Source: an uncultured Clostridia bacterium (GTDB lineage: Bacteria > Bacillota > Clostridia > Acetivibrionales > CALMWN01). Taken from it: a DNA stretch of 45,813 nt. The position numbers and the translations under genes were made by a program. Positions 2,632-39,096 of the stretch are shown here, in pieces; positions within the stretch are counted from its first letter, which is position 1, and the number at the start of each line of letters is the position of its first letter. The stretch lies in contig CALMWN010000410.1 of assembly GCA_937873555.1 (NCBI GenBank), forward strand, positions 1 to 45,813, in the 5' to 3' direction. The notes under the pieces are model-generated. The model saw only the letters and a list, made by a program, of their open reading frames with translations, ran no database searches and was not told the origin of the DNA.

Positions 2632-2632
2632 G

Positions 2633-4993: not shown

Positions 4994-5102
4994 TAAGTTG
5001 AAATTTACGGTGAAATATTTACTAGTCATTCAAATTATTGAGATATAAACACATGTTAAATTTTTTCTCGGATTTTTCAGAATAAGGTATGGAGGTAATT
5101 TG

Positions 5103-7098: not shown

Positions 7099-7162
7099 TA
7101 GTATAATATAGTTTTACATTTTATTGTATAAACAAAATTCATAATAAAACCATAGAAATGGA

Positions 7163-8536: not shown

Positions 8537-8601
8537 TGTTGGTCTATTTATATTTATGATAATTTTATACTCCCTTAGCCCCGTGTCTACTAAAGAGTAA
8601 G

Positions 8602-10231: not shown

Positions 10232-10265
10232 GAATTGGCTAGCTTTTATGTAATAGTCACGGAGA

Positions 10266-13054: not shown

Positions 13055-13096
13055 GCTAGTATTGCCAGAAGTTTATAAATTAATTTGTTACGATAT

Positions 13097-13130
13097 AAAA
13101 AAGCGTTTTTTCACTTCTGAGAAAAAACGC
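13097..13130 (-). terminator. orphan rho-independent terminator-like hairpin
   Basis: 10-bp perfect stem GCGTTTTTTC/GAAAAAACGC with an 8-nt loop. An A6 run on the plus side gives a U-tract on the minus strand. No minus-strand gene feeds into it. Confidence 0.35.
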
Positions 13131-13241
13131 AAGAAGGCAAATTGAGTGTGAAAAAACTTGTTTTTTACATCGCCTGAATGGCTGAAATGTAAGGTTGAAA
13201 AATGGACTAACGTTCAAACTGGTATATAATTGGGGTCAGGT

Positions 13242-14444: not shown

Positions 14445-14464
14445 ACATTACCAGAAGTTTATAA
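13304..14464 (+). CDS. HPr-kinase-fold P-loop protein, copy 2 (intact)
   Basis: 386 aa, identical to copy 1 up to ...CKEIA, then the native end NITRSL. AGGGGGG lies 5 nt upstream of the ATG. Confidence 0.7.
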   Translation: MNVVSKILNKFDEQEKFKLNVSIFDYSIEIFSTSQEALNYLKELFYPDNTNCLSQNKVFLGKRDLLIKNINMDESELKDIMHNIIISWIYLGIVHPIKTAEVKKYIYNSWQAYIQSNKDKHSNPYILFKRENEIIIITTKGFNNYKLLSWIVREIAGRRLENNGYSIFHAGAVNINGKGVAIFGNSGAGKTTLALGLCKYEGAKYISSDRLYIKNNDINNCLESTSFSFPIRINYGTLLTLQEMNNYEKWNLQTPVPGEDTTWKQFDGKDKLEITPYELEQKLLLQVSAKTNIDIVIFLNLLTNSNMNEYIYETNSELLETNCWTPTDPSFAYDWLSQRNISDELLLHSSKKIINSLMNLTNIKVKYSFLHFRDLCKEIANITRSL

Positions 14465-14638
14465 ATTAAATTTGTTACTTTCCATTAGCCCTCTATCATA
14501 CTATTTTTGTGAAATGCTTATGCAGACTAATTAGGCATTTATCTTTAAAAGCAATTTTGTGAATCAATGTGCGGATATTTTATAATGACCCCAGAAAACA
14601 AGACAGACAAAGCAGCCCAAATAAGTTAGAATGTAATT

Positions 14639-14722
14639 ATGGATAAGAGAAGAAACTTTACACCCGAACAAAAAGCAAAAATCGTTATGGAAGTCTTACG
14701 GGAAGAAAGAACACTGAATTGA
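14639..14722 (+). pseudogene. IS3-family OrfA remnant (first 27 codons only)
   Basis: MDKRRNFTPEQKAKIVMEVLREERTLN followed by a stop, the N-terminal HTH of IS3/IS911-type OrfA. Confidence 0.55.
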
Positions 14723-14909
14723 TGAACCGGACAAACAATGGAAACCAAAAACGCATGCAGCAAGCAAAATTTCCTCAACACAAGAGCATGGAAGAATTTA
14801 ATTTCAACTATCAGCCAAGTATCAACCGCCAAACCATATATAACCTGGGTGCCTGCGAGTTCATCCGGAAGAATGAGAATATAGCCTTTATTGGTCCGAC
14901 CGGTACCGG
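14719..14909 (+). pseudogene. istB: IS21-family IstB helper ATPase, 5' fragment (5'-truncated, then interrupted in the Walker A motif)
   Basis: AKFPQHKSMEEFNFNYQPSINRQ...IAFIGPTGTG matches IstB up to the first half of the P-loop. Continuation is at 18427. Confidence 0.75.
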
Positions 14910-14925
14910 ATATGACAACATTTTA

Positions 14926-14992
14926 GTTATGTAAAGATTTTGCCGAGAATGCCAGTAATAATAGGAGCTTTTAGCAAAAAACTTTACATAAC
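14926..14992. repeat. left subterminal 67-bp palindromic module of the RIT element
   Basis: Bounded by GTTATGTAAAG (14926-14936) and CTTTACATAAC (14982-14992). Confidence 0.75.
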
Positions 14993-15068
14993 AGTTTAAT
15001 ATAAATATAGTTCAAGATAAATTTGATACATACTCCTTTTATCATATAAAATAAAGGAGTGTTGTCAA

Positions 15069-16304
15069 ATGACAGATCAAAAAACAATTCTTGAGCTGAT
15101 TGAAACCGTGAGCAAAGAGATGCGCGAGCTGGAGTATTCAGAAAAAACCCTGACATCATATGAAAAGGTTTGGAAGTCATTCAAAGCCTTTGCCAAAAAG
15201 AAAAACATCAATTTCTATTCAACCGAAGTTGGGCTTGCGTTTTTAGAGCAGAAGTGCAAATTCGTTTCCAAATACCCAGTAAAATATACTATGGAAGAAA
15301 AGGTAAGAGCAGTCAATAGGATTGACGAGTACTACAAATATAGCATAATTTCAACCAAAAGAGCTCATAGAAAAAAATATACTTTTCCGGAGGTGTTCAG
15401 GGAACAAGTCCACTCATATATAGTTTACAGAAAGACAGAAGGCTTATCGGATAGTCGGATTAAAGCCATCAGTGCATACATGGAGCGATTTACCAATTAT
15501 TTGTATGACATTGGCCTGCGAAAGATTGCAGAACTGGACGTCTCTCATATTCATGGTTTCATTGAATTCTCCACCAAATATACAGCTTCAACGGTCAGAA
15601 ACACCTTTACATGCCTACGGGGATTTTTATCCTTTATTCATGAGAAAGGCTACCTGGATAAGAATTTAACATTTATGATTCCATTAATACGCATAAGCAG
15701 AGAATGCACAATCCCCTCTGCATATTCAAAAGATGAAGTGGAAAAGATCCTTAATTGTATAGACAGATGCAATACCAAGGGAAAGCGCGATTATGCCATG
15801 CTGCTTCTTGCTGCAAGGCTGGGATTACGTGCTTCCGATATCTGCAGTTTGACTTTCACAAACTTGAATTGGGAACAGAATTTGATCGAAATAGTCCAGG
15901 AAAAAACAAAAAAGACATTGCAATTACCGTTGCTGAACGAAGTTGGTGATGCAATTATCGATTATCTGCATTTCCGTCCGAAAGTTCCACTCAAATATGT
16001 CTTTCTCAGGGTTGAAAATCCACCGGAAAAATTGCACAATCATTCCCTATACGAAATTGTGTCTAAATACATGAGCAGGGCTGGAGTTCACGTCCCACAA
16101 GGCAAAAAACATGGTCCTCATGCATTAAGACATTCTCTCAGCAGTATAATGTTGGAAAACAGAGTTCCTCTGCCGGTGATATCAGAGATATTATCACACA
16201 CCAACTCGGACACTACCAAAATATATTTAAAAATTGATATCTCCCAGCTCAGGGAATGTGCACTCGATGTGCCGGGGATTGAAAATTTGGGTATGGAGGT
16301 GTAA
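15069..16304 (+). CDS. tyrosine recombinase, first of trio (RitA position)
   Basis: 411 aa. C-terminal catalytic pattern ARLGLRASD...HALRHS...LSHTNSDTTKIYLK. Confidence 0.85.
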   Translation: MTDQKTILELIETVSKEMRELEYSEKTLTSYEKVWKSFKAFAKKKNINFYSTEVGLAFLEQKCKFVSKYPVKYTMEEKVRAVNRIDEYYKYSIISTKRAHRKKYTFPEVFREQVHSYIVYRKTEGLSDSRIKAISAYMERFTNYLYDIGLRKIAELDVSHIHGFIEFSTKYTASTVRNTFTCLRGFLSFIHEKGYLDKNLTFMIPLIRISRECTIPSAYSKDEVEKILNCIDRCNTKGKRDYAMLLLAARLGLRASDICSLTFTNLNWEQNLIEIVQEKTKKTLQLPLLNEVGDAIIDYLHFRPKVPLKYVFLRVENPPEKLHNHSLYEIVSKYMSRAGVHVPQGKKHGPHALRHSLSSIMLENRVPLPVISEILSHTNSDTTKIYLKIDISQLRECALDVPGIENLGMEV

Positions 16305-16309
16305 GAGTT

Positions 16310-17302
16310 ATGGTCAACATGAATATCAACAATGAAAATATAGCTTTTTACAAAAATCTCGTCGCGCAGTTCCTATCCTACAAACGGGCGCAGGGATACA
16401 AATATAAAGCAAACGAGGAAAGTTTGAACAGATTCATCAAGTTTTTAGTTGCCTTCGGACTGACGGAATGCCGACTCTCAAAGGAACTGGTTGAAGCATA
16501 TGCCATCAAGCGCCCCGACGAGGCACCCAAGAATCATGCAAACAGGGTAAGCGATTTTAGACAGTTCGTCATATATTTGAATGAGCTCGGGTACGAGGCA
16601 TATATTCCAACTGTAAGCAAGGTCTCAAAACGCTCATCATCCTTCGTCCCGTACATATTTACACATGATGAGATTTCAAGAATTTTTCAGGTGGTTGACA
16701 GGTTGAAGCCCAATTCACGTTACAACAGTGCGATTGTTTATCCGGTATTGATAAGAATGCTATACGGATGTGGTTTGAGAATTTCGGAAGCACTTGATTT
16801 GAGAGTGGGAGATGTAGATTTGGTCAATGGTGTCCTGACTATAAAAAAATCAAAATTTGATAAGGACAGGCTTATACCCATGTCGGAGTCTTTGAATTCC
16901 ATATGCAAAAGATTCCTCAAGCAGATGCACAAGAACTCAGCCGAAAATGACTACTTTTTTAAAAACAGAAATGGCAGCCGACGTAGTAAAAACACAGTAT
17001 ACCATCGATTTCGTGAAATTCTTTGGTCAAGTGGAATTTCTTACGGTGGTAAAGGCAAAGGGCCGAGACTTCATGATATGAGGCATGTATTTTGCTGTCA
17101 TTCATTAAAAGAAATCTCCGATAAAGGCATTGACTTGTACTGCGCATTACCGGTATTATCCACCTACCTGGGGCATAGTTCGGTAACGGCAACAGAAAAA
17201 TATCTCAGACTAACAGAGGAATTATACCCCGACATAATTAAACGCATGAATGGCACCACCTCGTATGTTTACCCGGAGGTGTATAAAGTTGAAGCCTACT
17301 GA
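16310..17302 (+). CDS. tyrosine recombinase, second of trio (RitB position)
   Basis: 330 aa. GCGLRISEAL...HDMRHVF...LGHSSVTATEKYLR. Confidence 0.85.
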   Translation: MVNMNINNENIAFYKNLVAQFLSYKRAQGYKYKANEESLNRFIKFLVAFGLTECRLSKELVEAYAIKRPDEAPKNHANRVSDFRQFVIYLNELGYEAYIPTVSKVSKRSSSFVPYIFTHDEISRIFQVVDRLKPNSRYNSAIVYPVLIRMLYGCGLRISEALDLRVGDVDLVNGVLTIKKSKFDKDRLIPMSESLNSICKRFLKQMHKNSAENDYFFKNRNGSRRSKNTVYHRFREILWSSGISYGGKGKGPRLHDMRHVFCCHSLKEISDKGIDLYCALPVLSTYLGHSSVTATEKYLRLTEELYPDIIKRMNGTTSYVYPEVYKVEAY

Positions 17303-18305
17303 TTTCGCATATTACCTTACTAATTTTCTGTCCAAATACCTGCCGTGCATTGAAGGATGTAGTGTGAATACGATTTCAGCTTATCGGGATGCGTTCAAAT
17401 TGCTGCTGATGTTTGCAAGGGAGAGGGAAGGCATAAAAGAGGAAAAACTGGAACTGTCTCTAATTGACAAAGCCTTCGTCATACGTTTTTTGTTATGGAT
17501 TGAAAATGAACGCGGTTGTGCTGTTATTACAAGAAATCAAAGGTTGGCTGCAATTCATGCGTTCTATTCGTATCTTCAAAGAGAATTGCCGGAACGCATG
17601 TACCAGCTTCAGGAGGTTTTATCAATACCCTTTAAAAAGCACCCACAGAAAACAGTAAATTTCTTCTCAACCGAAGGAATTAAAGCTCTTCTTGCGGAAC
17701 CAAACATAAATACAGAAAGCGGCCGAAAGCATCTTGTGCTTCTAAGCTTAATGTATGCAACCGGCAGCCGTGTACAGGAAATTGCTAATCTGACAGTATC
17801 GGATGTCATGTATAACGGTAATTCTCTTGTGAAGCTGACGGGAAAAGGAAACAAAAGCAGATTTGTACCTCTGGAGCCTCCTGTTGTTAAATTACTCTGC
17901 CAGTATCTCGAAGATTTTTCATTGATTGACCCTTTCAGAAGGATGGAATTGCTGTTTACAAATCACTCACAAAAAAAGTTAACGCGGCAAGGCATAACCC
18001 ATATTCTTAAAAAATATGCTGACAAAGTGAGAAAAAAGCGGCCTGAACTGATACCTGGAACCGTTTCACCGCATTGCCTTCGGCACTCACGAGCAGTCCA
18101 TTGGCTACAGGCTGGAGTGGATTTGATATACATCAGAGATTTATTGGGCCATACCAGTGTTCAAACCAGTGAAATTTATGCACGTATTGATGGGGAAATG
18201 AAAAGAAAAGCTTTAGAAAAAGTTTCTTCACATGCTATCCCAAATGAAATGCCGTCATGGCAAAAAGACAAATCATTAATGGAATGGTTGAAAGAATTGG
18301 ATTAA
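17250..18305 (+). CDS. tyrosine recombinase, third of trio (RitC position)
   Basis: 351 aa. ATGSRVQEI...HCLRHSRAVHW...LGHTSVQTSEIYAR. Overlaps the previous gene; exact start uncertain (17250, 17265 or 17289). Confidence 0.8.
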   Translation: MAPPRMFTRRCIKLKPTDFAYYLTNFLSKYLPCIEGCSVNTISAYRDAFKLLLMFAREREGIKEEKLELSLIDKAFVIRFLLWIENERGCAVITRNQRLAAIHAFYSYLQRELPERMYQLQEVLSIPFKKHPQKTVNFFSTEGIKALLAEPNINTESGRKHLVLLSLMYATGSRVQEIANLTVSDVMYNGNSLVKLTGKGNKSRFVPLEPPVVKLLCQYLEDFSLIDPFRRMELLFTNHSQKKLTRQGITHILKKYADKVRKKRPELIPGTVSPHCLRHSRAVHWLQAGVDLIYIRDLLGHTSVQTSEIYARIDGEMKRKALEKVSSHAIPNEMPSWQKDKSLMEWLKELD

Positions 18306-18382: not shown

Positions 18383-18402
18383 CAAATACTTGTCATATCC
18401 GG

Positions 18403-18426
18403 CCTTATGTAAAGATTCACATAAGG
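18403..18426. repeat. 24-nt hairpin between two CCGG copies just outside the RIT right end
   Basis: CCTTATGTAAAGATTCACATAAGG has 8-bp arms and contains the TTATGTAAAGATT core also present in the RIT ends. It is flanked by CCGG at 18399-18402 and 18427-18430. Confidence 0.7.
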
Positions 18427-18947
18427 CCGGGAAAACCCACTTATCCATAGCAATCGGTATTAAAGCTGTTACTCAAGGGTACTCCGTTCTCTTTATCACT
18501 CTGAATGATATGTTAGAAGATCTATATATGTCCCGTGTGGATAATTCATTTGGGCAGCGCCTGAAAAAATATACACAGCCTGACTTATTGGTCATTGATG
18601 AATTGGGTCTTCGAAAGCTAAACCAGACTAGCGTGGATGACTTCTACGAAGTTATTGCAAAGCGTTATGAGCAACGTTCGACTATCATCACCTACAACAA
18701 GACTTTCGAGGAATGGGGCAAAATCCTCTTCGACCCAGTGTTAGCTACCGCTATTCTTGATAGATTCGTCCACTATTGTAATTTCATAGTCATCAATGGT
18801 GACAGTTACAGAATGCGGGAGCGTGAAGGACTTGTTTCTCACACTGGTAAACGAGGGAGACCAAGAAAATCAGCTGTCCCTGAAGAATTGTCCACTGATA
18901 ATGTCGGACTGGAAGTCGAAGAAACGGAGGAGGAAACATTAAGATGA
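18427..18947 (+). pseudogene. istB: IS21-family IstB, 3' part
   Basis: Joining ...GGTACCGG (14902-14909) to GAAAACCCAC (18431-18440) restores GPTGTGKTHLSIAIG (Walker A). Downstream LLVIDELG is the Walker B. Confidence 0.75.
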
Positions 18948-24507: not shown

Positions 24508-25007
24508 ATCATGCTCCCTGGTTAAAATTAACAAGACAACATGTTAAGTATATACGGAATTCCGAATAAAAGCAAGATATTAGGCCTAGAACCACCGTAA
24601 TATGCTCATGAAGCAACTAAAAGAACAGTATATATGAATAAATAAATCGTTTGTTTTATTGTCGGATAGATCAAGTTGCTTTTTGCATGAAAGGAGGAAT
24701 TCAAGTATCAAAAGTAATCGACCTTGACAATCAAAAAGGTGATATGTGATAAATGATCACAGCGGTAGATCAAAGAATCGGTCTTGCATTAAGGATAAAA
24801 AGTTACTGTGAGTGATTAACTGATGGTCATGCAGGACAATAAACAGCAGCAAAAAAAGAGAACCTTCACTGTGATTACAGATCTGGACATTGTATAGACC
24901 TTTTGTTTTTAAGTAAAATATATAAATTGATTTAAAAATTAACTATCATAAACATATAAAACTAGCAATGATTGGCAATAATTTTTATAAAAACATTTGG
25001 TGAGCTT

Positions 25008-25860
25008 ATGTGTAATGAAGAAAGTTACTTAAAAGAAGGTTCTTGTTTCTCCCGCAGTAAACTGTATAACATAGAACCTATAGGATTAAATACAGCGTAT
25101 ACGGAGAGCCTGACAAGTTATATTACTAGGATTTCAAAAGCTCATTCTGTATATGTCGGAACATTAATAAAATTAGAGCTGGCACCAATACTTGATAAGT
25201 ATTATATTTTGAACAGCTCATTCAACGGAGGAAATAGTTTCTACAGTTACACACATATATTAAATGGTAATGGCAAAAATGCGGATGATTTTGCTAATGC
25301 GCTTTCTGAAATGGTATGTAGAAAAGACATTCTTTTCACAACAATGCTCTCTTACCGGAATGTGATTCCTTATCAAGGTTTATCAAAAAATACAGCTTCA
25401 TGGTGTCCGTTTTGCCTTGAAGAATGGAGAATTGCAAATAAACCGATATATATGCCTTTGGCTTGGACTTTGAAAGTAAGTAACATCTGCAATATACATA
25501 ATACAAGGCTGGTGAGCAGATGTCCTATATGTAATAGCAAGATTCCATTTCTGCACAGAAAAATTTGTAATGGTTACTGTCCAAGGTGTAGAGCATGGTT
25601 GGGCAGAGGATACGATCAAAATGTAAGTCAGTTAATAAAAACAGACGACTGGGAGAAATGGGTGAATTGTAATATTGGTGAGTTAATTTCCATGGCTCCA
25701 GTTATAAGCATTCTTCCTTCCAGAGAAATATTGGAGGAGAATCTAAAACATATAATTAATACATCTAACAATATAACTCGTTTAAGTAAATTGACGGAGA
25801 TTCCAAAGTCAACAGTTTGGTATTGGGCAAATGGTAAGACTATTCCACGCTTGGATAAAT
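25008..25860 (+). pseudogene. tniQ: TniQ-family target selector (paralog 1), 5' part, interrupted by IS66
   Basis: The pattern SRSKLYNIEPIGLNTAYTESLTSYITRISKAH plus WCPFC...RCPICN...YCPRCRAWLG is shared with the TniQ at 31934. Confidence 0.75.
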
Positions 25861-27578
25861 GTTACTGCTCAGCCATTGACAAAATTGACGTACTAAGCAG
25901 ATGGTAATATTTTATCAATGAAAAGTCCCCAATTCAACCAATATAATAGTATCAAAGGTTGAATGGCGGTGAATATAGTGGATGAGTCATTAATAATAAA
26001 AACCTACAATGAAGGTATAAATTCAGTTATAACTCTTGTTAAAGAATCAATGGCGGGGCTAAATAAAGAGATATTTGATTTGAAGCTTGAAAACCAGAAA
26101 CTAAACGAAAGAATTACAGAGCTTGAAGCCCGCCTTAACAAAAATAGCAGCAACAGCAGCAAGCCTCCCTCATCAGACGGATACAAAAAGCCTCAAAACA
26201 GCCGGCAGAAGACAGGGAAGCCTACCGGTGGCCAGTGGGGCCACGAGGGAAAAACACTGGAAAAAGTGCAAAATCCTGATGAAGTGATTGAGTATAAAAC
26301 CCCGGGAGACTGTGATTGTGGTTGTGAATTGAATAACGTCAAGTGTACAAAGAAAACCCGGCAGGTATTTGATATCCCAAAACCCAAGATACGGGTAACA
26401 GAGCATGTTACCTACGAGGTAGTGTGCCCAAAATGCGGGAAGGTGCACAAAACAGATTTTCCGCCACAGGTTAGCCAACCTACACAGTATGGTGCAAATA
26501 TGCAGGCATTGATGAATTACCTCACACTATACCAGTTGATCCCCCTTGAAAGAGCTGCTGACACAATAAAGAATTTCACTGGACAGACGGTAAGTGAGGG
26601 GACCTTGGTAAATGCGGCATACGGGCTGTATAACAAGCTGGAAAACCCGGTAGAGGAAATTAAGCAACAGATCACCGATTCCGATGTAGCTCATTTTGAT
26701 GAGACGGGAATGAGAGCCCAAGGGCAAACCAAATGGTTGCATGTAGCTTCCACGGAGAACCTGACCTATTATGCCGTGCATGACAAACGTGGAGAAAAGG
26801 CTGCCAAAGACATCGGCATTCTGCCGCACTTTACGGGCACAGCCGTACATGACCACTGGAAGCCCTACTACCGCTTCATTGGATGCACCCATGGAGAATG
26901 CAATTCCCATCATCTGCGTTCCCTGAAGGATGTAGTTGAAAACTACCATCAGGAATGGGCAGATAAAATGGCGGACCTGTTGATTGAAATCTATCGCAGA
27001 GTAGAGGGCTTAAAGGAACAGGGTTTTACCAAAATGCCTGAGGAAGAAACAAAAATATGGTATGGCCGGTACCATAAAATTCTAACCGAAGGTATTACGG
27101 AAGATTCCATGAAAAGCCCGCAAGTACTGAATAAAAAGGGCAAACTGAAGAAAAGCAAGCCATTGCAGTTACTGCTAAAGCTTCAGCAGTTTGATATTGA
27201 AACCTTGGCCTTCATGTATGATTTTGACGTGCCCTTCCATAACAACTTGGCCGAACGGGACTTGAGGATGCAGAAGCTCCGGCAGAAGATATCAGGATGT
27301 TTCCGCGGAAAGGATGGGGCCAACGTATTTAGCCGGGTAAGAAGCTATTTATCCACGGCAAAGAAAAATGGAATTGATGCGATGGAGGCCATTGTATTGG
27401 CAGTAAAAGGGCAGCCATTTGTCCCTGTAAGGTAGGCGTATTCAGTTTTACACACTCAGGGGATGCCGGAATGGTATCCCTTGTTTTTCGACCCGATCTG
27501 GTCGGTGACATCACGCGCATAGGTGATGGTCTAATCCTACCATGAAACCGGGTCTGTTTGGAATGCCTGAGCAGTTAC
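25861..27578 (+). mobile_element. IS66-family insertion sequence (single-ORF type)
   Basis: Terminal inverted repeats are GTTACTGCTCAGCCATTG at the left and, as reverse complement, GTAACTGCTCAGGCATTC at the right. A perfect 8-bp target duplication GGATAAAT sits at 25853-25860 and 27579-27586. Confidence 0.9.
25963..27435 (+). CDS. IS66-family transposase
   Basis: 490 aa. Leucine-zipper N-terminus ending NSSNSSKPPSSDGYKKP, a CPKCG zinc finger and an HFDETG DDE region. Confidence 0.9.
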   Translation: MAVNIVDESLIIKTYNEGINSVITLVKESMAGLNKEIFDLKLENQKLNERITELEARLNKNSSNSSKPPSSDGYKKPQNSRQKTGKPTGGQWGHEGKTLEKVQNPDEVIEYKTPGDCDCGCELNNVKCTKKTRQVFDIPKPKIRVTEHVTYEVVCPKCGKVHKTDFPPQVSQPTQYGANMQALMNYLTLYQLIPLERAADTIKNFTGQTVSEGTLVNAAYGLYNKLENPVEEIKQQITDSDVAHFDETGMRAQGQTKWLHVASTENLTYYAVHDKRGEKAAKDIGILPHFTGTAVHDHWKPYYRFIGCTHGECNSHHLRSLKDVVENYHQEWADKMADLLIEIYRRVEGLKEQGFTKMPEEETKIWYGRYHKILTEGITEDSMKSPQVLNKKGKLKKSKPLQLLLKLQQFDIETLAFMYDFDVPFHNNLAERDLRMQKLRQKISGCFRGKDGANVFSRVRSYLSTAKKNGIDAMEAIVLAVKGQPFVPVR

Positions 27579-27586
27579 GGATAAAT

Positions 27587-28077
27587 TATTGCTTTTAGGA
27601 TATGTTTTTGGATTCAGGTTGCCAGATGTTTTTTTAAAAACTGATAATTTAACTAGGGAAAACGATATAAATGTTGTTAAGATTAATTCTGACATTTCGG
27701 GAACAAAACAAAAAAGAAAAAAGCTTGATTTTGAGAATATGAAAATAAGTTTGGAAACATATTTGAATGCTGAACATCCTTTACCAATGATAGAAGTCGC
27801 AGAAAAAATAGGCGTTAATAAGAGGATTATACTAAGATACTTTCCTGATTTATGCAAACAGATTTCAAAAAGATATAAGGAGCATTTAAGCAATAAAAGT
27901 AATCAAAGGAAAGTACATCTTTGCCACATCATTGAAGATGTCATTGAACGTTTGATAAAAGATAATGAGTACCCCAGTAGAAGGAAAATTGAATTAAATT
28001 TACCGGATGGGATAATACTAAAAGATAGTAGGTTTAAATCAATATGGAAATCAAAGCTGGAAGAGTATGGGCTATAA
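27587..28077 (+). pseudogene. tniQ: TniQ paralog 1, 3' part
   Basis: In frame with 25008..25860 once the IS and one duplication copy are removed (853+491 nt = 448 codons). The C-terminal HTH-like segment EVAEKIGVNKRIILRYFPDLCKQISKRY parallels AVAKRLGISVRTIQKRLPDLSRQISKKR of TniQ paralog 2. Confidence 0.75.
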
Positions 28078-28135: not shown

Positions 28136-30796
28136 ATGTTTAGTGAAAAAGAATTTGATGTGTGGAGTATTGAAAATAAAATACAAAATGCCGCAAAAAC
28201 ATTAATTCAAAATATAAGAAATTCTCAACCTAGTAGAGTTGTCGGTGGAGGTAAATACAATGTATCTGGTAGGTATCCAAGTAGGAAAATGAGACTGACA
28301 ATACAATTTGAAAGCCATCGTGTTGAACTTGCTTCGATTTATGAGAAGGAACATGATCCTGATATTTTAGAATACTATGATCAGCCACCTTCAATAAAAC
28401 TTAACTACCCAACAAAGGACGATAAAAATATTGGAGTAATGTCTACACCGGATTTTTTTGTTATTCACAAGAATGGTGCATACTGGGAGGAGTGGAAAAC
28501 GGAAGAGGAACTATTAAAGCTTTCTGTCCGTTCTCCAAATAGGTATGTCAGGGAGAAAAACGGTACATGGAGATGCTCACCGGGAGAAGAGTATGCAGCA
28601 AAGTATGGTTTGCAATACAAGTTAAGGTCTTCTTCAGAAATTGATTGGATTTTTCAAAGGAATATCATTTTCCTGGAAGATTATTTAACAGATGCTTCAA
28701 CAGTTGTTACTGAGAATGCAAAAAGAGAAATAGAAACTTTGATAGGTGAAAATCTCGGAGTTTTATTATCTGAATTAATTACAAGTACAGCAAATGCAAC
28801 TTCAGATGATATTTATTTAATGATCAGTAGAGAAGAAATATACGTTGATATTTATAAGAACTGTATAGCTGAGCCTGACACAGTAAAAGTATATAGAAAC
28901 TTAGAGCATGCAAAAGCATATGGAAATATCATTGAAAGCAATTATGAATCCATATATGAAATATCTACTATGAATATTGAGGTTGGGCAAAGAGTACTTT
29001 GGGATGGAGTTCGGTGGATGATTATTAATGTTGGCGAATATGATATATCTTTGTCTTCAGATACAAAAAAGTATATTAATTTACCGAATGATATTTTTGA
29101 AGCATATGCAAATCAGGGTAGGATAAAAGGAATTAACAATGACAATGATATATATCCGGCTGCAAAACATAAGGATATTATTTTAAAAGCCGATAAAGAA
29201 GATCTGGAAATTGCAAATTACCGGTATAAGTGTGTTAAAAAAGTGTTGAGTGGACAGGAATCAGATCAATTACAAGTTCCTGCCAGGACAATAAGACGTT
29301 GGATAAAAAGTTTTAAGGATGCACAAGAGATTTATGGCAATGGTTATGTTGGATTAATACCGGATCATAAAATGAAAGGAAACAGAACTAATAAATTGCC
29401 GGACGAATCATTAGAAATAGCAAATGAATTTATAGAGAATGATTATGAAACGAAAAAACAGAAGTCAAGATTTGCTGTTTATGGTGCTCTACTTAATGAA
29501 TGTGAAAAAAGAGGATTACTTGCACCCAGTTATAAGACTTTCTGTAATATGATTAATAATAGAAAAAAAGAGGAACAAGTAAAAAAAAGGATGGGAAATC
29601 GAGCTGCTTACAAGTATGAAAAATTTTATTGGGAATTAACACTGACCACTCCAAGGCATGGAGACCGGCCTTTTGAAATAGGACATATTGATCATACTGA
29701 ATTGGATTTGGAATTAATTCACTCCCGCATACATAGAAATTTAGGAAGGTGTTGGATTACATTCTTATCTGATGCGTTTGCCAGGAGAATTCTATCAGTA
29801 TATGTTACATTTGATCCACCAAGCTATCGTTCAGTTATGATGGCTCTTCGTGAATGTGTTAGGAGACATAACAGACTGCCACAATCAATAGTAATTGATG
29901 GGGGGAAGGAATTTAACAGTGTATACTTCGAAACTTTTTTAGCACACTATGAGGTTTTGAAAAAACAAAGGCCTCCAGCTAAAGCCCGATTTGGATCAGT
30001 TATTGAAAGGCTATTCGGGACAACTAATACTGAATTCATTAACAATTTACATGGTAACACGCAGATTATGAAAAATGTCAGGCAGGTAACAAAAAGTGTC
30101 AATCCAAAACAGCATGCAATATGGACTTTGAATCTTTTGCATGAAAGGCTCTGTATTTGGGCCTATGAGGTATATGATACAATTGAACATCCGGCTTTGG
30201 GACAAAAACCACGAGATGCTTTTCAATTAGGTATGACAACATCGGGGAGTCGACCCAAGAGGTTTGTTCCATTTGATGATATCTTTAAGATAATCTCCCT
30301 GGCGACCACGGGAAAAGGTTGTGCTAAAGTCCAGGTTGGACAGGGAGTTAGAATAAATTGTTTATACTATTGGTCGGATCTGATGAAAGATCCGGGAGTT
30401 GAGAATAAACAGGTTCCAATTCGTTATGATCCTTATGATATTGGAATAGCATATGCTTATATAAAAGGGAACTGGGTAAAATGTATTTCAGAATACTATT
30501 CAATACTCAAGGGAAGGACAGAAAAAGAGTTGCAGATGATTACTGAAGAGATTAGAAAACAGAAGAAAAATTCATCTATGAAAGTAAGTATTACTGCAAA
30601 AAAAATTGCTAAATTCATCAGGGAAAATGAAGAAATTGAAGCTATTCAAATGCAAAGGCTAAAGGATTTTGAAGCAAAACAGGTATTTAACAACATTGGA
30701 AATCAATGCGAAGAATCCAAGGAAAACATAGAAAAAGATATTTGTTTTGAAGAAAATGCTAATATTAAAAACTTAAGTGTTTATGGAGTTTACTGA
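28136..30796 (+). CDS. fused TnsA-like endonuclease / TnsB (TniA)-like DDE transposase
   Basis: The N-terminus has QFESHRVE...STPDFFVIHKNGAYWEEWK (TnsA-type E...D...ExK). Beyond it come an HTH region, GHIDHTELD, IVIDGGKEFNS and NTEFINN (DDE) and a long Mu-transposase-like C-terminus. Total 886 aa. Confidence 0.75.
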   Translation: MFSEKEFDVWSIENKIQNAAKTLIQNIRNSQPSRVVGGGKYNVSGRYPSRKMRLTIQFESHRVELASIYEKEHDPDILEYYDQPPSIKLNYPTKDDKNIGVMSTPDFFVIHKNGAYWEEWKTEEELLKLSVRSPNRYVREKNGTWRCSPGEEYAAKYGLQYKLRSSSEIDWIFQRNIIFLEDYLTDASTVVTENAKREIETLIGENLGVLLSELITSTANATSDDIYLMISREEIYVDIYKNCIAEPDTVKVYRNLEHAKAYGNIIESNYESIYEISTMNIEVGQRVLWDGVRWMIINVGEYDISLSSDTKKYINLPNDIFEAYANQGRIKGINNDNDIYPAAKHKDIILKADKEDLEIANYRYKCVKKVLSGQESDQLQVPARTIRRWIKSFKDAQEIYGNGYVGLIPDHKMKGNRTNKLPDESLEIANEFIENDYETKKQKSRFAVYGALLNECEKRGLLAPSYKTFCNMINNRKKEEQVKKRMGNRAAYKYEKFYWELTLTTPRHGDRPFEIGHIDHTELDLELIHSRIHRNLGRCWITFLSDAFARRILSVYVTFDPPSYRSVMMALRECVRRHNRLPQSIVIDGGKEFNSVYFETFLAHYEVLKKQRPPAKARFGSVIERLFGTTNTEFINNLHGNTQIMKNVRQVTKSVNPKQHAIWTLNLLHERLCIWAYEVYDTIEHPALGQKPRDAFQLGMTTSGSRPKRFVPFDDIFKIISLATTGKGCAKVQVGQGVRINCLYYWSDLMKDPGVENKQVPIRYDPYDIGIAYAYIKGNWVKCISEYYSILKGRTEKELQMITEEIRKQKKNSSMKVSITAKKIAKFIRENEEIEAIQMQRLKDFEAKQVFNNIGNQCEESKENIEKDICFEENANIKNLSVYGVY

Positions 30797-31968
30797 TGAC
30801 AAAGAATAGTGGCTTCCCCATATGTTTATTGGAACAACCAATTGAGAACAGAGCAAAATATTTTCACGAATTTACTGTAGCTCACCCCTTACTAGTGAAG
30901 TCTACAAAACAGGTATTAGATACGATTAAAAACCCGGAAGGATATTCAATTTTTATGGTAATTGGACCGACTGGTGTCGGGAAAACCACATTAAGAAAGA
31001 AGGTCGAGAAAATTGTTATTCAGGAAATGCTATCAGAAATGGAAAATGATAAAAGTTTCATTCCGATAGTGGGAATGGAAATCGTTTCACCTGACTCAGG
31101 AAAGTTTAGCTGGATAGATTATTATAAAAGAGCACTTCAAGAATTAAATGAACCAATGATTGACAAAAAAATTGATTATGATCAGCTTTTTTTAAAATCT
31201 AATTTTAAAAGTAAATATGCACTTACAAGTAAAAAAACAACTGCTATGGAATTGAGGAAATCCTTGGAAAGTGCTTTTCATTATAGAAGGACAGTTACAT
31301 TTCTTATTGATGAGGCACAACATTTTACAAAAATGGCTAGTGGTAGAAGATATCAGGACCAACTTGATACAATAAAATCCTTATCAAATATGACAAATGT
31401 TATCCATGTTTTAATTGGGACATATGAGCTGCTGCCTTTTGTCAACTTAAGCGGGCAATTAAGCCGTAGAACTATTGATATACACTTTCCCCGGTATAAA
31501 GCTGATAGCAATGATGACCTATATATATTCAATAGTGTATTAAAAACATTTGAGAGCCATATGCCTCTAGAAAAAGAAAGTAACCTTATTAAGTATTGGG
31601 ATTTCATTTATGAGAGAACAATAGGATGTGTAGGTATTCTGAAAAATTGGTTGGAGAGGTGCCTTAATGAAGCCTTACATGAAGGTTATAAATCAATAGA
31701 TTTTGAATTGCTAAAAAAACACTCACTTTCTCTTTCTAAAGCCGAGAAGATGGCTATTGAAGCAATTGAAGGTGAATCTACTCTAGAAGATAATGAAGAA
31801 AAAAAGATAAATCTGCATAAAATACTTGGTATAAATTCTTCGAATGGTGAAAAAACTACAAATATCGACAAATGTGGTAAAAGTGTAGGGAAAAATAAGA
31901 AAAAACATAATGTAGGTCAGCGAAAACCGATGCGTGATGAAGTTGGACAATTGGAGAAAGCAAAATAA
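30796..31968 (+). CDS. tnsC: TnsC/TniB-type AAA+ transposition ATPase
   Basis: VIGPTGVGKTTL (Walker A) and FLIDEAQHF (Walker B). The ATG overlaps the upstream stop (ATGA). Confidence 0.8.
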   Translation: MTKNSGFPICLLEQPIENRAKYFHEFTVAHPLLVKSTKQVLDTIKNPEGYSIFMVIGPTGVGKTTLRKKVEKIVIQEMLSEMENDKSFIPIVGMEIVSPDSGKFSWIDYYKRALQELNEPMIDKKIDYDQLFLKSNFKSKYALTSKKTTAMELRKSLESAFHYRRTVTFLIDEAQHFTKMASGRRYQDQLDTIKSLSNMTNVIHVLIGTYELLPFVNLSGQLSRRTIDIHFPRYKADSNDDLYIFNSVLKTFESHMPLEKESNLIKYWDFIYERTIGCVGILKNWLERCLNEALHEGYKSIDFELLKKHSLSLSKAEKMAIEAIEGESTLEDNEEKKINLHKILGINSSNGEKTTNIDKCGKSVGKNKKKHNVGQRKPMRDEVGQLEKAK

Positions 31969-33364
31969 TAAATATATATCTTTTCAGGATCTTGACTTAG
32001 AGCTTCCGAATTTTTCAAAAAGAAGCAGGTTTTACTCATTGGATCCAATTGGAGTTGGAACACCTAATGTAGAGAACTTTACGAGCTACATTAACAGACT
32101 AGCTATCACACATAAAATTACTGTAAGTAGTCTGTTACAGTGCCTAATAAAAGAGGAGAGGGGAAATAATAGTTCTTTCAATATTCCGCATTTGAATTCA
32201 TTTTATAGAAATAATAGTACTGCTTTAAATGGTGTTAGTAGTAAATCAAATATTTTTTTAACAGCATTTAGTAATCAAGTGTGTAAAAATAATTTATCAA
32301 GTCTAACTTTAGTACCTTGGAGTAGTGTTTTACCTCAACACAACCTTATTAGAAGAATGAAGGGCTATTGCCCATTTTGTTATGAATATTTAAAAAAAAA
32401 TAACATTGAAATTTATGATCTATTATTATGGTCTTTTAGTTCTCTAACTATTTGCCCAGTACATAAAACAAAACTTCAATTTAACTGTACATATCATGAT
32501 TGCGGAAAGGTTCAATATAATTTAGATACTTGTTCGAGACCGGGATACTGCAATAAATGTCATCGTTGGTTAGGAAATGATTTTGCTGATCTAAAAAGAG
32601 ATGAAGAAGTGATGATTAATTTAGATTTCCAAGTTTGGGCTGCAGATCAAATTGGTAAGATAATATCAGAAACGAATAAATTGAAATCTTTACCCAGACG
32701 CGAGAATATTATGATAGCTTTAAATATATTAAAGAATAAGTATTTTAATGATTCTATTCCAAATATTTCAGAATTTTTCAATATACCTATAGCCAGTATA
32801 AGATTTTGGTGTGAAGGTAGGTGGATACCAAACATAGAAGCTTTATTAATAATATGTTATAGAATGCAAATATCTTTATTAGATTTATTAAAATACGGGA
32901 TACTGACAAAAGAATCGGAATGTGTGTTTCATATTGAAAATCAGAATGTGGATTATAAAAGGCGAGATTTTAAAAAAGCTATAATTGATGAAAACAAATT
33001 ACGTACAGATTTGCAAAATATTTTAGATAGCAATGAGATACCACCGCCACCCTTAACTGCAGTCGCAAAAAGGCTTGGTATATCTGTTAGGACAATACAA
33101 AAAAGATTGCCAGATCTGTCTAGGCAAATATCAAAAAAAAGGTTTGAATATAGAAAGTTGGAAAAGACAAAAAGACAAGAACAGTTTTATAAAGAAATAA
33201 AAGCTGCTGTAATTCAAATAACTAATGATGGATTATATCCAAACATTTTAAGAATAAGTGATTATATATCTAAATCACCACTTGTATTTTATGAATTTGA
33301 ATCATTAAAAGTTTGGAGAGAAATAATGGCTGAATTATCTCTTGAGCCTAAAATTGAAAAGTAA
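31934..33364 (+). CDS. tniQ: TniQ-family target selector (paralog 2, intact)
   Basis: RSRFYSLDPIGVGTPNVENFTSYINRLAITH, YCPFC...ICPVH...YCNKCHRWLG. Overlaps the 3' end of tnsC. Confidence 0.8.
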   Translation: MMKLDNWRKQNNKYISFQDLDLELPNFSKRSRFYSLDPIGVGTPNVENFTSYINRLAITHKITVSSLLQCLIKEERGNNSSFNIPHLNSFYRNNSTALNGVSSKSNIFLTAFSNQVCKNNLSSLTLVPWSSVLPQHNLIRRMKGYCPFCYEYLKKNNIEIYDLLLWSFSSLTICPVHKTKLQFNCTYHDCGKVQYNLDTCSRPGYCNKCHRWLGNDFADLKRDEEVMINLDFQVWAADQIGKIISETNKLKSLPRRENIMIALNILKNKYFNDSIPNISEFFNIPIASIRFWCEGRWIPNIEALLIICYRMQISLLDLLKYGILTKESECVFHIENQNVDYKRRDFKKAIIDENKLRTDLQNILDSNEIPPPPLTAVAKRLGISVRTIQKRLPDLSRQISKKRFEYRKLEKTKRQEQFYKEIKAAVIQITNDGLYPNILRISDYISKSPLVFYEFESLKVWREIMAELSLEPKIEK

Positions 33365-35804: not shown

Positions 35805-35842
35805 CTCTGATTATACCTAATACAGTTTAGGTATAATCAGAG
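35805..35842. repeat. perfect 16-bp inverted repeat with 6-nt loop
   Basis: CTCTGATTATACCTAA-tacagt-TTAGGTATAATCAGAG, between the convergent recombinase and PLD genes. No U-tract on either side. Confidence 0.8.
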
Positions 35843-35905: not shown

Positions 35906-37456
35906 TTACCAATCAATCCCTAATTCGATTAACATATCATCTTTTTTTATCTCGGTAACATTTCTGTCGATATAATCATTTTTGTTTTTAAATATAGTAT
36001 TATTTTTTATATAATACGTTTTTTTGCTTGATAAAATTATGTCTACCTCGGTTGCTTTCCAGAGCAGTTGATAATCATTATTTTTTATTAATCTTAATAG
36101 CTCCTTTTTACTAAGTTCTCTATCAAAACATTGATTCTTAATACTTGCCATAGACCTATAATACTTGCCTTCATATTTACAGAATATTAGTTGTTTTGAA
36201 GTAAGAGCATCAACTATTTTCATATCACCAAGTTCTATATCAAATACTTTTTCACAATTTGCTTTAACCGCGTGAATAGTGTTTTCAACTGGTTCTTCTT
36301 CAATTAACTGTCCGTTTTTAAATATTTGATAATAGTCTGCAAAATAGACGTACTCAGTACCTAATTCCGTATTAATCTTGAAAAAGGAGCAATTCAACTT
36401 ACGATACTGATTTATTAGTGCGGATATGGAACGAAAATCATAATGGCTTGTATTACTTGTTAGAAATTTACCGAGATCAGCCATAGAGTCATATATTTTA
36501 TCCCTAAAGAGTAGTTTTGTTTTTTCCTTATATTTCTCCTTAACCTCAGATTCCTTGTTTAACTCATCGATTTGGGCTTGAATTTCATTTTTGGACAGCT
36601 TTAAGTAATCATCCTCGAACCGCCATATGTCTCTTTTGTAATGCTCTTTTTTCCCCTTACATACATCACTAATGTATCCATAGCTGCGCTTTGAATAATA
36701 ATACTGTTCAGCGGCCTCTAACATAGAATTGTATCTTACCCCTGTATTTAGGCACACTACAGGTTTCGACAAATGAAGTTTTGCAGATTCATTCATCAAC
36801 TTTAAATGTTCTGGAGATATTACTTTTCCTTTATTAGCATCCGATATTTTCTTTTTCTGCTCATCTGTCGGGCTCCATGAACCTTTATTATTTTTTCTAA
36901 CTTCTCTAGCTTTTTCCATTGGTGTTTTTTTAAATACTTGATCTTCTAAATCCTGAGAGACGGTTGAATCAATTTTATTACCCTGATTATGATTTATTAT
37001 TTCTTTAAACCTATCTAATCTTTCCTTTGTTAATGTTGTGGCAGCTCTCCAATATTCTTCGTATAATTTATTTAGATCATCAAAGCAAGTGTCATCATAG
37101 GGTATTCCAAAATTAATTTCACGGTTATTTTTTAGACCTCCATTCGTAAAATTACTCGATCCTACTATTATATATAATTCATCAAACACAAAAATTTTAG
37201 AATGAAAATTCTGCTCTGTAAAAAATTTTATTGTGATATTTGGATTATTAATTATCTTTTCCAATGCAAAATATGATGTAGCAATGCATAATCGTACAAC
37301 CAATCTTATTTTACTGTTATTATCAATCAACTTATTGAGAAATTCATTTTCGGTGAAAAATGGGGCTGCAATTGATACACGCGGGCAGTTACTATAATTC
37401 AATAAAGTATTTATGAGATAATCTTCTTTATCTATTGAATTGGTAAACAATTCCAT
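35906..37456 (-). CDS. PLD-family (HKD) nuclease fused to NUMOD-type homing-endonuclease DNA-binding modules
   Basis: The N-terminus has HSKIFVFDELYIIVGSSNFT (HxK..D..GSxN). The middle has SPTDEQKKKISDANKGK and SPEHLKLMNESAK (NUMOD3-like), then KPVVCLNTGVRYNSMLEAAEQ...ISDVCKGKKEHYKRDIWRFED (NUMOD1/IENR-like). Further degenerate repeats follow. Confidence 0.65.
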   Translation of the reverse strand: MELFTNSIDKEDYLINTLLNYSNCPRVSIAAPFFTENEFLNKLIDNNSKIRLVVRLCIATSYFALEKIINNPNITIKFFTEQNFHSKIFVFDELYIIVGSSNFTNGGLKNNREINFGIPYDDTCFDDLNKLYEEYWRAATTLTKERLDRFKEIINHNQGNKIDSTVSQDLEDQVFKKTPMEKAREVRKNNKGSWSPTDEQKKKISDANKGKVISPEHLKLMNESAKLHLSKPVVCLNTGVRYNSMLEAAEQYYYSKRSYGYISDVCKGKKEHYKRDIWRFEDDYLKLSKNEIQAQIDELNKESEVKEKYKEKTKLLFRDKIYDSMADLGKFLTSNTSHYDFRSISALINQYRKLNCSFFKINTELGTEYVYFADYYQIFKNGQLIEEEPVENTIHAVKANCEKVFDIELGDMKIVDALTSKQLIFCKYEGKYYRSMASIKNQCFDRELSKKELLRLIKNNDYQLLWKATEVDIILSSKKTYYIKNNTIFKNKNDYIDRNVTEIKKDDMLIELGIDW

Positions 37457-37609
37457 CGTTTCACCTACCCTACAGCCTTAATTTATGTTAAATATTATAA
37501 CAGAAAATGGATTGAAATTTAACCTTGTTGGAGTAGTACCAGCATGCTGATACTTATCTACACTTGTTATAAATAATGATACAATGGTTGGATGTTAAAA
37601 TGTTGCACT

Positions 37610-38023
37610 TTATATCAACTTATTATATATAAACGTAAATCTGAGCCACTCAAAAATTTGAATTAACTCTCGGACTTCATAATTAGGCAGTCGTTTTTTG
37701 TTAGGGTTATTAACTTCTTGATTATGTACATGAAAGGGTTCCGTGACTGTCTGATCTTTTTTATCCGGATGCGATTCGCTATGAAACCTTATATGATCCT
37801 CAGCTCCGTTACAGCGAAACAAATCATAGAAGTATATATCAATTTTGCCGTCTTTAATATATTCCGTAATGTAAAATTTGGAACCATCAATCAAAGTATA
37901 CGTTTTTCTTCTTATAGAATAACTAGAAGGTAATCCAGTCTTATCAAAGTCTTTTTCGTTCTGGATAATATCCTTAAATCTCGCACTAATAAGAGTGAAA
38001 TTCGAAGGCGGCAAATTAGTCAT
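37610..38023 (-). CDS. TumE/DUF6516-like putative toxin
   Basis: The pattern HIRFHSESHPDKKDQTVTEPFHVH...ELIQIFEWL resembles the TumE family as I recall it. The start overlaps the upstream gene by 8 nt. Confidence 0.35.
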   Translation of the reverse strand: MTNLPPSNFTLISARFKDIIQNEKDFDKTGLPSSYSIRRKTYTLIDGSKFYITEYIKDGKIDIYFYDLFRCNGAEDHIRFHSESHPDKKDQTVTEPFHVHNQEVNNPNKKRLPNYEVRELIQIFEWLRFTFIYNKLI

Positions 38024-38654
38024 TCTTCACTCTTTCCAATAGATACTTCCATTCTTCTTCATCACGTTTTTGCTCAGAATTTTTAATATATATTTTCATA
38101 AGAGTGTCTTCATATTTTCCATTGTACTTTTCCTCAAAAAACTTTATTGTTTGCTTAAATGCAGCTGCTTCTTCTTCCAAAGACTGATTTACATACTTCA
38201 ATTGTTCCGATTTCCAAGATTCAACAACAGCCCTTATTGGAATAAGTTCCGTAGTTGCGGATACCCAAAGCACATTATCTGAAATCTTTATTTTCTGATT
38301 TTTTGCTGTTCTTTCAGTTCCAATAAACCGCTTATTATCAATCCAATTATTAATTGTCATTATAGATACACCGAAAAACTTTGCAAGCTCTCCTGTAGTA
38401 TAAGTCTTCACAATAGCCCTGGTCTGTAAATCAAGCATCGCCTTAAGAATCGTATGCATATTAACCTTAAACATGTTTTTGTCAGTAAACATTCTTTCAT
38501 CCAAAGCTATCTTCGTCCCAGGGTAAGTTAAATGTACAAAATTAGACAGGATCTTTACAAATAACTTTCCGTCCGAATTCTTATAAAAAGTATCAGTATA
38601 ATAGTCAACATTCTCAAGAAAATGTTCTTTTTCAACAGATGTAATCATAAACAT
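38016..38654 (-). CDS. HTH DNA-binding protein (excisionase-type HTH), putative regulator or antitoxin
   Basis: YTTGELAKFFGVSIMTINNWIDNKRF. Strong GGAGGTGAGGAG upstream. Confidence 0.5.
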   Translation of the reverse strand: MFMITSVEKEHFLENVDYYTDTFYKNSDGKLFVKILSNFVHLTYPGTKIALDERMFTDKNMFKVNMHTILKAMLDLQTRAIVKTYTTGELAKFFGVSIMTINNWIDNKRFIGTERTAKNQKIKISDNVLWVSATTELIPIRAVVESWKSEQLKYVNQSLEEEAAAFKQTIKFFEEKYNGKYEDTLMKIYIKNSEQKRDEEEWKYLLERVKND

Positions 38655-38841
38655 CACTCCTCACCTCCAATTCTAACACAACTTAAACCCAACTTCAAGG
38701 CACTTAAAAGATACATAAATATAATATGCACATTTTATACGAATTGATATACAGATGCAAAATATTTCCAGGATCGCTTGATTTGTACATTTACACAAAG
38801 ATTCAACAATGCAATATCGATGTTTAGCGGGTTTTACAGCC

Positions 38842-39023
38842 AATGTTGATATGTTTGTGTCCCGGATTCCATGACAGAAAGTTATCAACATTATATTTTT
38901 AGGACACAAAGTTCGCAACATTGTAACCGATCGTTGATATCTTTGTGTCCTGGGCGCATAGTTGCACATTGAATTAATCAATGTTGATAGCATTGTGTCC
39001 TGAATGTTGATATGTTTGTGTCA
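38842..39023. repeat. array of five 21-bp iteron-like repeats AATGTTGATAnnnTTGTGTCC
   Basis: Direct copies at 38842, 38931, 38980 and 39003, and an inverted copy at 38901-38922. A half-site AATGTTGATAAC lies inverted at 38881-38892. Confidence 0.8.
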
Positions 39024-39096
39024 TCCGACATGATTCGTAGCCCGAGGGAAAATACTTATTATATAGATAATAATCGAATAGTTTTATTTTGTTGCA

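Follow-up and report, generated by a model that had tools for sequence, protein, structure and literature searches.

A single-HKD phospholipase D domain fused to a homing-endonuclease-type DNA-binding module, encoded in the cargo of a Tn7-like transposon

Introduction

Single-HKD enzymes of the phospholipase D (PLD) family, such as Nuc and BfiI, build one active site from two chains and cut without metal ions through a phospho-histidine intermediate. Homing endonucleases rely on other chemistry: all six of their recognised families are metal-dependent and work without a covalent intermediate, and the catalytic domains so far paired with NUMOD-type DNA-binding arms (GIY-YIG, HNH, EDxHD) all depend on metal (PMC3943268). 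Here we describe a gene in which a single-HKD PLD domain is joined to a DNA-binding module of the homing-endonuclease type. It occupies 35906..37456 (minus strand) of a 45,813-nt stretch of DNA from an uncultured Clostridia bacterium (contig CALMWN010000410.1, positions 1 to 45,813; hereafter the window) and encodes a protein of 516 amino acids (aa). We found no description of this PLD-NUMOD/IENR architecture in the literature that was searched.

The layout resembles that of BfiI, with an N-terminal single-HKD PLD domain, a linker and a C-terminal recognition domain, although in the present protein DNA recognition is presumed. BfiI has been described as a dimer that needs no metal and has a single active site where its subunits meet (PMC2853115), and by analogy the same mechanism would be expected here, with a homodimer sharing one metal-independent site. 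The two differ in that the recognition domain of BfiI is B3-like, whereas here there is one NUMOD1/IENR-type module followed by an orphan domain, and in that BfiI belongs to a restriction-modification system, whereas no member of the present family adjoins a methyltransferase. With I-TevI, I-BmoI, I-HmuI and the Seg proteins the window protein shares the series of catalytic domain, flexible tether and extended DNA-binding region, a homologous NUMOD1/IENR1-type module and possibly a NUMOD3-like helix. It differs from these GIY-YIG and HNH homing enzymes in its PLD catalytic domain, which lies outside the six recognised homing-endonuclease families, in having one module instead of a tandem array, and in its large globular orphan domain; unlike them, it is not associated with introns or inteins and is absent from a phage genome collection.

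Other described proteins resemble the PLD part alone. Nuc, NucT and Zucchini are single-HKD proteins like residues 1-160 of the window protein, but have no DNA-recognition arm, and SauUSI, whose PLD domain is similar, also carries helicase and target-recognition domains, which the window protein lacks. The nearest PLD relative is a family of ~400-425-aa proteins annotated as 'phospholipase D-like domain-containing protein', also encoded by stand-alone genes; it is far more abundant, and has its own unrelated and uncharacterised C-terminal domain of ~240 aa. DrmC of DISARM (PADLOC, E=8.2e-10) and DpdK of Dpd (NCBIfam, E=9.9e-7) give PLD-level matches, but these proteins lack NUMOD-type modules, and no drm or dpd genes are found near the window gene.

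Results

The open reading frame (ORF) is complete, with its stop codon at 35906-35908, and this copy of the gene is intact and full length; full-length homologs are 34-51% identical to it. Residues 1-160 (36977..37456, minus) form a single-HKD PLD-family nuclease domain, recognised by both Pfam and Foldseek. Pfam PLDc_2 matches residues 26-136 well above its cutoff (E=2.6e-11, 43.9 bits vs 27), and the Pfam PLDc active-site motif matches residues 85-106 (E=9e-5). The catalytic motif HxK(x)4D(x)6GSxN can be read directly at residues 85-104 (HSKIFVFDELYIIVGSSNFT; 37145..37204, minus) as H85-S-K-I-F-V-F-D92-ELYIIV-G99-S-S-N102, in a single copy per chain. In an alignment of 18 family sequences, H85, K87 and G99-S-S-N102 are kept in all 15 members that bear a PLD domain, and D92 is D or N. 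A first-pass annotation of this DNA had pointed out the single HKD motif in the N-terminal part, and had allowed that the motif might lack conserved partners and mark an inactive domain; its residues are in fact conserved family-wide. Such strict retention across members that are 30-50% identical argues for selection on catalysis.

Structural comparison of residues ~1-160 of the full AF2 model with the PDB (Foldseek) returned the PLD domain of the type IV restriction enzyme SauUSI (7clg) as the top match, along with NucT (6ehi), Nuc (1byr) and Zucchini (E=2e-6 to 1e-4, probability 1.00). FAM83, F13 and TrmB-like proteins were also among the matches to this domain. The Pfam RE_NgoFVII N-terminal PLD domain was matched in 10 of the 15 PLD-bearing members. 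BfiI itself was absent from both the sequence and the fold matches of the 516-aa protein.

Residues 231-301 (36554..36766, minus) hold a single DNA-binding module of the NUMOD1/IENR1 (I-HmuI NUMOD-like) type, followed by a helix, as the first-pass annotation had claimed, and three comparisons identify it. First, PHROG_314 'homing endonuclease' covers residues 193-300 (E=2e-9). Second, a GIY-YIG protein found by database search (P0008) aligns with 33% of the query, and of its five tandem repeats four align by BLASTP with query residues ~207-330 (E=5e-12 at best); Pfam recognises GIY-YIG, NUMOD1 (E=7.9e-11) and I-HmuI_NUMOD-like (E=5e-13) domains in P0008. Third, a hidden Markov model (HMM) built from 13 repeats of P0008 and of P0032, a 779-aa GIY-YIG-like protein, gives one match in the window protein, at residues 231-301 (HMM positions 1-68, i-E=3.5e-18). 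The same repeat HMM finds exactly one copy in every family member, all other matches being noise (i-E>0.2, negative scores). The Pfam NUMOD1 and PF22083 models do not reach the window protein, and NUMOD1 is matched in one of the 18 family members (E=0.0095). Membership in the NUMOD1/IENR1 type is thus transitive, by way of the P0008 and P0032 repeats, and not direct; judged by these sequence comparisons, one module is firmly present. It is the most conserved region of the family, with invariant columns at V233, N237, A248, Y253, I262, V265, C266 and Y273.

The non-catalytic part of the model was also compared by Foldseek with viral predicted structures, and matched an intron-associated endonuclease and GIY-YIG, HNH, SegB/SegC and NUMOD1/NUMOD3 proteins; these alignments have a high root-mean-square deviation, as expected of extended flexible tails. 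The middle region therefore matches DNA-binding modules of homing endonucleases, contrary to the caveat in the first-pass annotation that no NUMOD or IENR similarity might be found, and the proposed fusion of a PLD nuclease domain to a DNA-binding module of the kind used by GIY-YIG and HNH homing enzymes is real, beyond chance. In the two GIY-YIG-type proteins, P0032 (779 aa) and P0008 (467 aa), the ~70-aa NUMOD1/IENR-type module is repeated 5 to 9 times in tandem; arrays of such unusual length imply very long DNA targets.

Between the two domains lies a variable linker of low model confidence (residues 161-230; 36767..36976, minus). The full-length AF2 model has a predicted local distance difference test (pLDDT) score of 78 and a predicted template modelling (pTM) score of 0.38, that is, good local confidence with a low pTM, and residues 177-214 appear disordered (pLDDT<50). 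The length of the linker differs between members, and its isoelectric point (pI) is basic in most. It contains a NUMOD3-like stretch at residues 196-212 (nt 36821-36871). Pfam NUMOD3 on residues 197-211 is weak (E=0.022; 15.1 bits, below the cutoff of 20.4); the model is matched in 4 of the 18 family members, at best with E=8.7e-4, and about five members of the alignment lack the stretch. Of the NUMOD3-like repeats that had been proposed, then, what stands is one weak match, below the Pfam threshold and missing from several relatives.

The rest of the protein, residues 302-516 (35909..36553, minus), appears from AF2 modelling to form a C-terminal domain that is specific to the family and has no known fold, and that presumably contributes to target recognition. 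Modelled alone from a 13-sequence alignment, residues 300-516 come out compact, with pLDDT 89.4 and pTM 0.76. This model had no significant structural match in the PDB (best E=0.75), and residues 302-516 had no match in Pfam, PHROG, NCBIfam or PADLOC. Neither a helicase/ATPase nor an SRA/B3-like domain was found in the protein by Pfam or by fold search of the C-terminal domain. The first-pass annotation had placed two or three more degenerate NUMOD repeats in this region. Comparisons between sub-profiles of the putative units by hhalign gave E=0.017-0.15 over 9-27 columns, the repeat HMM finds its single copy upstream, and the domain alone has no PDB match, so we rejected this candidate. Given the insignificant profile comparisons, the confident compact model and the lack of any database match, we describe residues 302-516 as an orphan globular domain; on the model, ~215 of the 370 non-catalytic residues belong to this domain and not to degenerate NUMOD repeats.

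The family is very small. An exhaustive profile search of 1.84 billion representatives found ~13 full-length members (P0004-6, P0010-18) plus fragments, in ~13-18 clusters. The full architecture occurs in one of 185,579 species-representative genomes, that of Clostridium frigoriphilum, and in none of 50,697 phage genomes; 2.9 million viral contigs held no relatives beyond PLD-only matches, and a JGI metagenome scan gave one truncated copy. A homolog search with the C-terminal alignment returned one fragment and missed known members, and so says little about distribution. P0158 is a second copy, at least 90% identical.

Both halves of the protein also occur in other company. Three proteins (P0019-P0021; loci L156-L158) combine the NUMOD1-type module and the orphan C-terminal domain and have no PLD domain; one of them, P0019, is a complete gene on seven contigs with no adjoining PLD gene. 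P0019 has a small DUF4177-like N-terminus and lies within an element with SHOCT, resolvase, WYL and integrase genes. We speculate that these proteins might regulate the nuclease form or counter it by protecting sites. On the other side, the nearest PLD-domain relatives form hundreds of clusters of the ~400-425-aa proteins (P0009, P0025, P0093; L009), which match our profile over positions 1 to about 200 (hmmsearch E about 1e-40) and have a different C-terminal domain. The combination of PLD domains with alternative C-terminal domains and the existence of PLD-less arm proteins indicate that both halves have been shuffled as independent modules; since the recognition arm also stands alone, the fusion gives the impression of a DNA-binding unit that has acquired a nuclease.

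Some details of these relatives are worth recording. The conserved, uncharacterised C-terminal domain of the ~400-425-aa family (also P0065) ends in GW..(x)..P..N.RT..A.R.LGF, and a plasmid tblastn search found the family in 105 Pseudomonas plasmid records among others, including megaplasmids. The gene on one Pseudomonas megaplasmid (NZ_OP378668.1; L068) has an annotated length of 598 aa, and two DNA methyltransferase genes are close by. A 518-aa Flavobacteriales protein (L034, 9848-11404) seems by eye to join the same PLD subtype to repeats like those of the helicase-associated (HA) domain, directly downstream of a tyrosine recombinase fragment.

The extent of the gene as a mobile unit can be read from its closest relative (P0002 in locus L154), which is 82% identical at the nucleotide level: the two share only the segment from ~66 bp 5' of the ATG through 1-2 nt past the stop, and their neighbours are unrelated. 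In the window the shared upstream piece is at 37457..37522 (minus) and includes a conserved extended -10 element (TGnTATAAT), here TGTTATAAT (37494-37502), and a ribosome-binding site (RBS), GTAGGTGA, just before the ATG. We take this piece for a probable promoter from its match to consensus; a generic promoter/terminator scan of the AT-rich window DNA gave no excess over shuffles. The portable unit is thus a self-contained ~1.6 kb of promoter, RBS and ORF. Beyond it, in the window-specific flank ~65 nt downstream of the PLD stop codon, is a strong hairpin with a 16-bp stem (35805-35842; CTCTGATTATACCTAA…TTAGGTATAATCAGAG), which has no T-run and was not called by the terminator scan.

No conserved neighbour and no adjoining DNA methyltransferase were found in the window or in ~10 homolog loci; the sole methyltransferase among the homolog loci is a small-molecule TehB-type gene (in L151). 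Two candidates for a conserved partner were rejected: the 394- and 395-aa neighbours in loci L001 and L003 are unrelated, and tblastn of all window neighbours against the homolog loci found only generic tyrosine-recombinase similarity.

The homologs sit in a variety of mobile contexts. P0012 (L152; JGI 3300037045, 1-17214) is an integron cassette, flanked by attC sites at 7619-7690 and 9248-9319 in an array of at least 11 attC sites of two sequence subtypes, whose cassettes encode HicA, DUF5343, HEPN_Swt1, DUF4304, HEPN, the PLD-NUMOD protein, DUF4365, GNAT and several unknown proteins. This array looks like a defence-rich chromosomal integron. P0005 (L004) is likewise bracketed by attC-type sites, and a YhcG-type cassette comes next. 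P0004 (L001) is in an integrase/resolvase island of Clostridium, and P0007 (L006) has IS21 IstB and RhuM neighbours. P0014 (L153), on a phage-like contig, has a Phd/YefM pair on its upstream side and, directly downstream, a portal gene of the SPP1 type (E=1.6e-27). The L154 copy (1035-2574) neighbours a divergent 226-aa ORF with what appears by eye to be a MazF/PemK-like core.

Damaged copies are frequent. The L154 copy is split into ORFs of 294, 156 and 60 aa, and may be a pseudogene or the product of assembly errors; the L006 copy is frameshifted near its 3' end; P0004 has lost an internal segment and is short at the C-terminus, and P0016 is also among the damaged copies.

The window copy is carried by a Tn7-like element. 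Its transposition genes, all on the plus strand, encode an 886-aa TnsA-TnsB fusion (28136-30796; Pfam Tn7_TnsA-like_N, rve and Mu-transpos_C), a TnsC/TniB-type AAA+ protein (30796-31968; AAA_22 and TniB) and TniQ (31934-33364; TniQ). A transposon end lies at 38842..39030, where six TnsB-type sites of 17-20 nt span 38842-39022, four oriented one way and two (at 38873 and 38903) inverted. Next to the outermost copy are the last 8 bp of the element, which from 39030 inward read TGTCGGAT, a Tn7-type TGT tip. Two TnsB-site pattern searches gave 5 and 8 matches where 0.0 and 0.39 were expected. The PLD-NUMOD gene stands between tniQ and this array, and hence in the cargo of the transposon. No partner end turned up in the 45.8 kb of the window. 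A second assembly (L155) shows the same Tn7-like arrangement, and there ArdC and SHOCT genes lie past the transposon end. No attC site was found at the window copy.

Upstream of the gene, and on the same strand, are a TumE-family toxin gene (37610-38023; Pfam TumE, 29.6 bits vs a cutoff of 23.4) and, overlapping it upstream, a gene for a helix-turn-helix (HTH) protein (38016-38657; weak HTH_17). The first-pass annotation had placed the gene in a mobile-element-like region next to a toxin-antitoxin-like pair, and both elements of that description hold in the form of the Tn7-like cargo and the TumE/HTH genes. This pair is not beside any homolog, and so is context and not a conserved partner. The other cargo neighbours in the window are a membrane ORF and a tyrosine recombinase.

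Farther out, just upstream of tnsAB, a second tniQ-like gene (24972-25907, 25963-27435 and 27589-28077) is apparently split by an IS66-family transposase; the 162-aa ORF at 27589-28077 resembles the C-terminal part of intact TniQ, and L155 shows the same state. Two near-identical ORFs of 383 and 386 aa (10328-11479 and 13304-14464), with a weak HPr-kinase-like P-loop, flank a segment of higher GC content (~45%) with transposase-like fragments on the minus strand, and may reflect a duplication around an insertion sequence. At 15069-18305 there are, by eye, three consecutive, partly overlapping tyrosine-recombinase-like ORFs (411, 330 and 351 aa), a layout that we take to recall 'recombinase in trio' elements, and an IS21 IstB-like fragment follows at 18390-18947.

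Discussion

On balance, we favour the view that the protein is a modular and site-directed DNA endonuclease, dimeric and metal-independent, tethered to a DNA-binding arm and serving as a defence or conflict gene borne by mobile elements. The single-HKD PLD domains of two subunits would come together into one composite active site, as in Nuc and BfiI, and DNA would be cut there without metal ions, by way of a covalent phospho-histidine intermediate. The flexible, variable linker, sometimes with a NUMOD3-like helix, would tether each catalytic domain to its recognition arm, and that arm, made up of the one NUMOD1/IENR1-type module and the 215-residue orphan domain, would be the source of specificity. 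The gene would ride on other mobile elements, here as Tn7-like cargo and elsewhere as an integron cassette or in an integrase/insertion-sequence island, and would most likely act against incoming or competing DNA (phages, plasmids, rival elements) without propagating itself by homing.

What speaks for a defence or conflict role is that the gene is a solitary unit with its own probable promoter on transposons, integrons and islands, amid genes of toxin-antitoxin and defence type, and that phage-defence genes have been documented in integron cassettes (bioRxiv 10.1101/2024.07.02.601719). The integron-cassette papers that we examined mention no PLD cassettes. Membership in DISARM, Dpd or any other PADLOC system was considered and rejected, the matches being at the level of the domain only.

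Several points weigh against this view. No similarity between the C-terminal domain and any DNA-binding fold could be detected, many members have an acidic to neutral pI in this domain, and its role in DNA recognition is an assumption. The matches to DrmC (NCBIfam, 17.2 vs 133 bits), DpdK (28.5 vs 100 bits) and the type IV restriction enzyme model concern a domain and fall far below cutoffs, so that the protein does not belong to any known defence system. The case is weakened in that context enrichment rests on ~10 loci, several of them on short contigs, and in that a solitary nuclease with no methyltransferase would need some protection for the host genome, none of which was identified. The truncated or split copies (L154, L006, P0004, P0016) fit a selfish or toxic gene equally well, and one copy stands directly upstream of a phage portal gene.

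The alternative that survives best is that these proteins are free-standing homing endonucleases of a new, PLD-based class, which cut a long target in genomes or elements lacking the gene and are then copied in by recombinational repair. The NUMOD1/IENR-type module and the layout of nuclease, linker and DNA-binding domain are indeed common to GIY-YIG, HNH and EDxHD homing enzymes (PMC3943268). The portable unit consists of just promoter and ORF with sharp boundaries, decayed copies are as frequent as the life cycle of homing genes leads one to expect, no methyltransferase is present, and on a phage-like contig one member is found directly upstream of an SPP1-type portal gene. Other observations speak against homing. 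None of the 50,697 phage genomes has the gene and the 2.9 million viral contigs gave PLD-only matches, leading us to reject a phage origin. No intron or intein is associated with it, and no host gene is interrupted in any locus, although homologs interrupting conserved phage or host genes had been suggested as the sign of homing to look for. The flanks of different copies are unrelated, so that homology-driven homing between sites is not evident, and two copies have been mobilised as integron cassettes and one as transposon cargo, that is, by movement independent of their own cleavage. We therefore regard homing as unlikely; of the 'homing or defence nuclease' of the first-pass annotation, the homing half finds little support in context and the defence half fits better.

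A broader proposal would make the family a seventh, mechanistically distinct class of long-target, NUMOD-tethered endonuclease, with a dimeric, metal-independent PLD site working through a covalent phospho-histidine and a new C-terminal fold for DNA recognition, acting either as a homing enzyme or as a single-gene anti-phage or anti-plasmid system spread by transposons and integrons. This we hold to be somewhat less likely again than homing as such.

A restriction-type enzyme might also be considered, either modification-dependent and type IV-like, with the orphan domain reading modified bases, or a type II enzyme like BfiI or NgoFVII, orphaned by the loss of its methyltransferase. For type IV restriction enzymes the absence of a methyltransferase is the rule, with which the present loci agree; SauUSI, a type IV enzyme, is the top structural match of the PLD domain, RE_NgoFVII is matched in 10 of the 15 PLD-bearing members, and the sister PLD protein P0025 matches the PADLOC type IV restriction enzyme model (E=5.7e-10). 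These matches concern the PLD fold only, however, and the protein has no helicase/ATPase or SRA/B3-like domain. In known cases NUMOD-type modules read long unmodified sequences, and nothing marks the C-terminal domain as a reader of modified bases. A restriction role of either kind is accordingly quite improbable.

We put no more weight on the idea that the protein does not cut DNA in vivo, as a DNA-binding regulator or partition-type factor of mobile elements whose PLD domain is vestigial or repurposed (acting, for example, on a phospholipid or nucleotide) or as a decaying gene: arm-only relatives do occur as complete genes, the PLD fold includes non-nucleases and pseudo-enzymes (FAM83, F13, TrmB-like) and many family copies are truncated, but members that share 30-50% identity strictly keep the whole catalytic motif, nucleases are the nearest structural relatives and the window copy is intact and full length.

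The significance of the PLD-NUMOD family is limited by its small size, and its function is read here from sequence and models. If the protein is sequence-specific, it could serve as a compact nuclease scaffold resistant to EDTA (ethylenediaminetetraacetic acid). As a minimal single-gene unit of ~1.6 kb with its own probable promoter, found as transposon cargo and in integron cassettes, it lends itself to testing as a defence or conflict gene that works alone. On its confident model, the orphan C-terminal domain is a candidate for a new fold in DNA recognition. Above all, a PLD domain in the slot before a NUMOD-type arm would add a metal-independent chemistry with a covalent intermediate, one that needs dimerisation to cut, and such dimer-dependent cutting would change how target sites are arranged and read.

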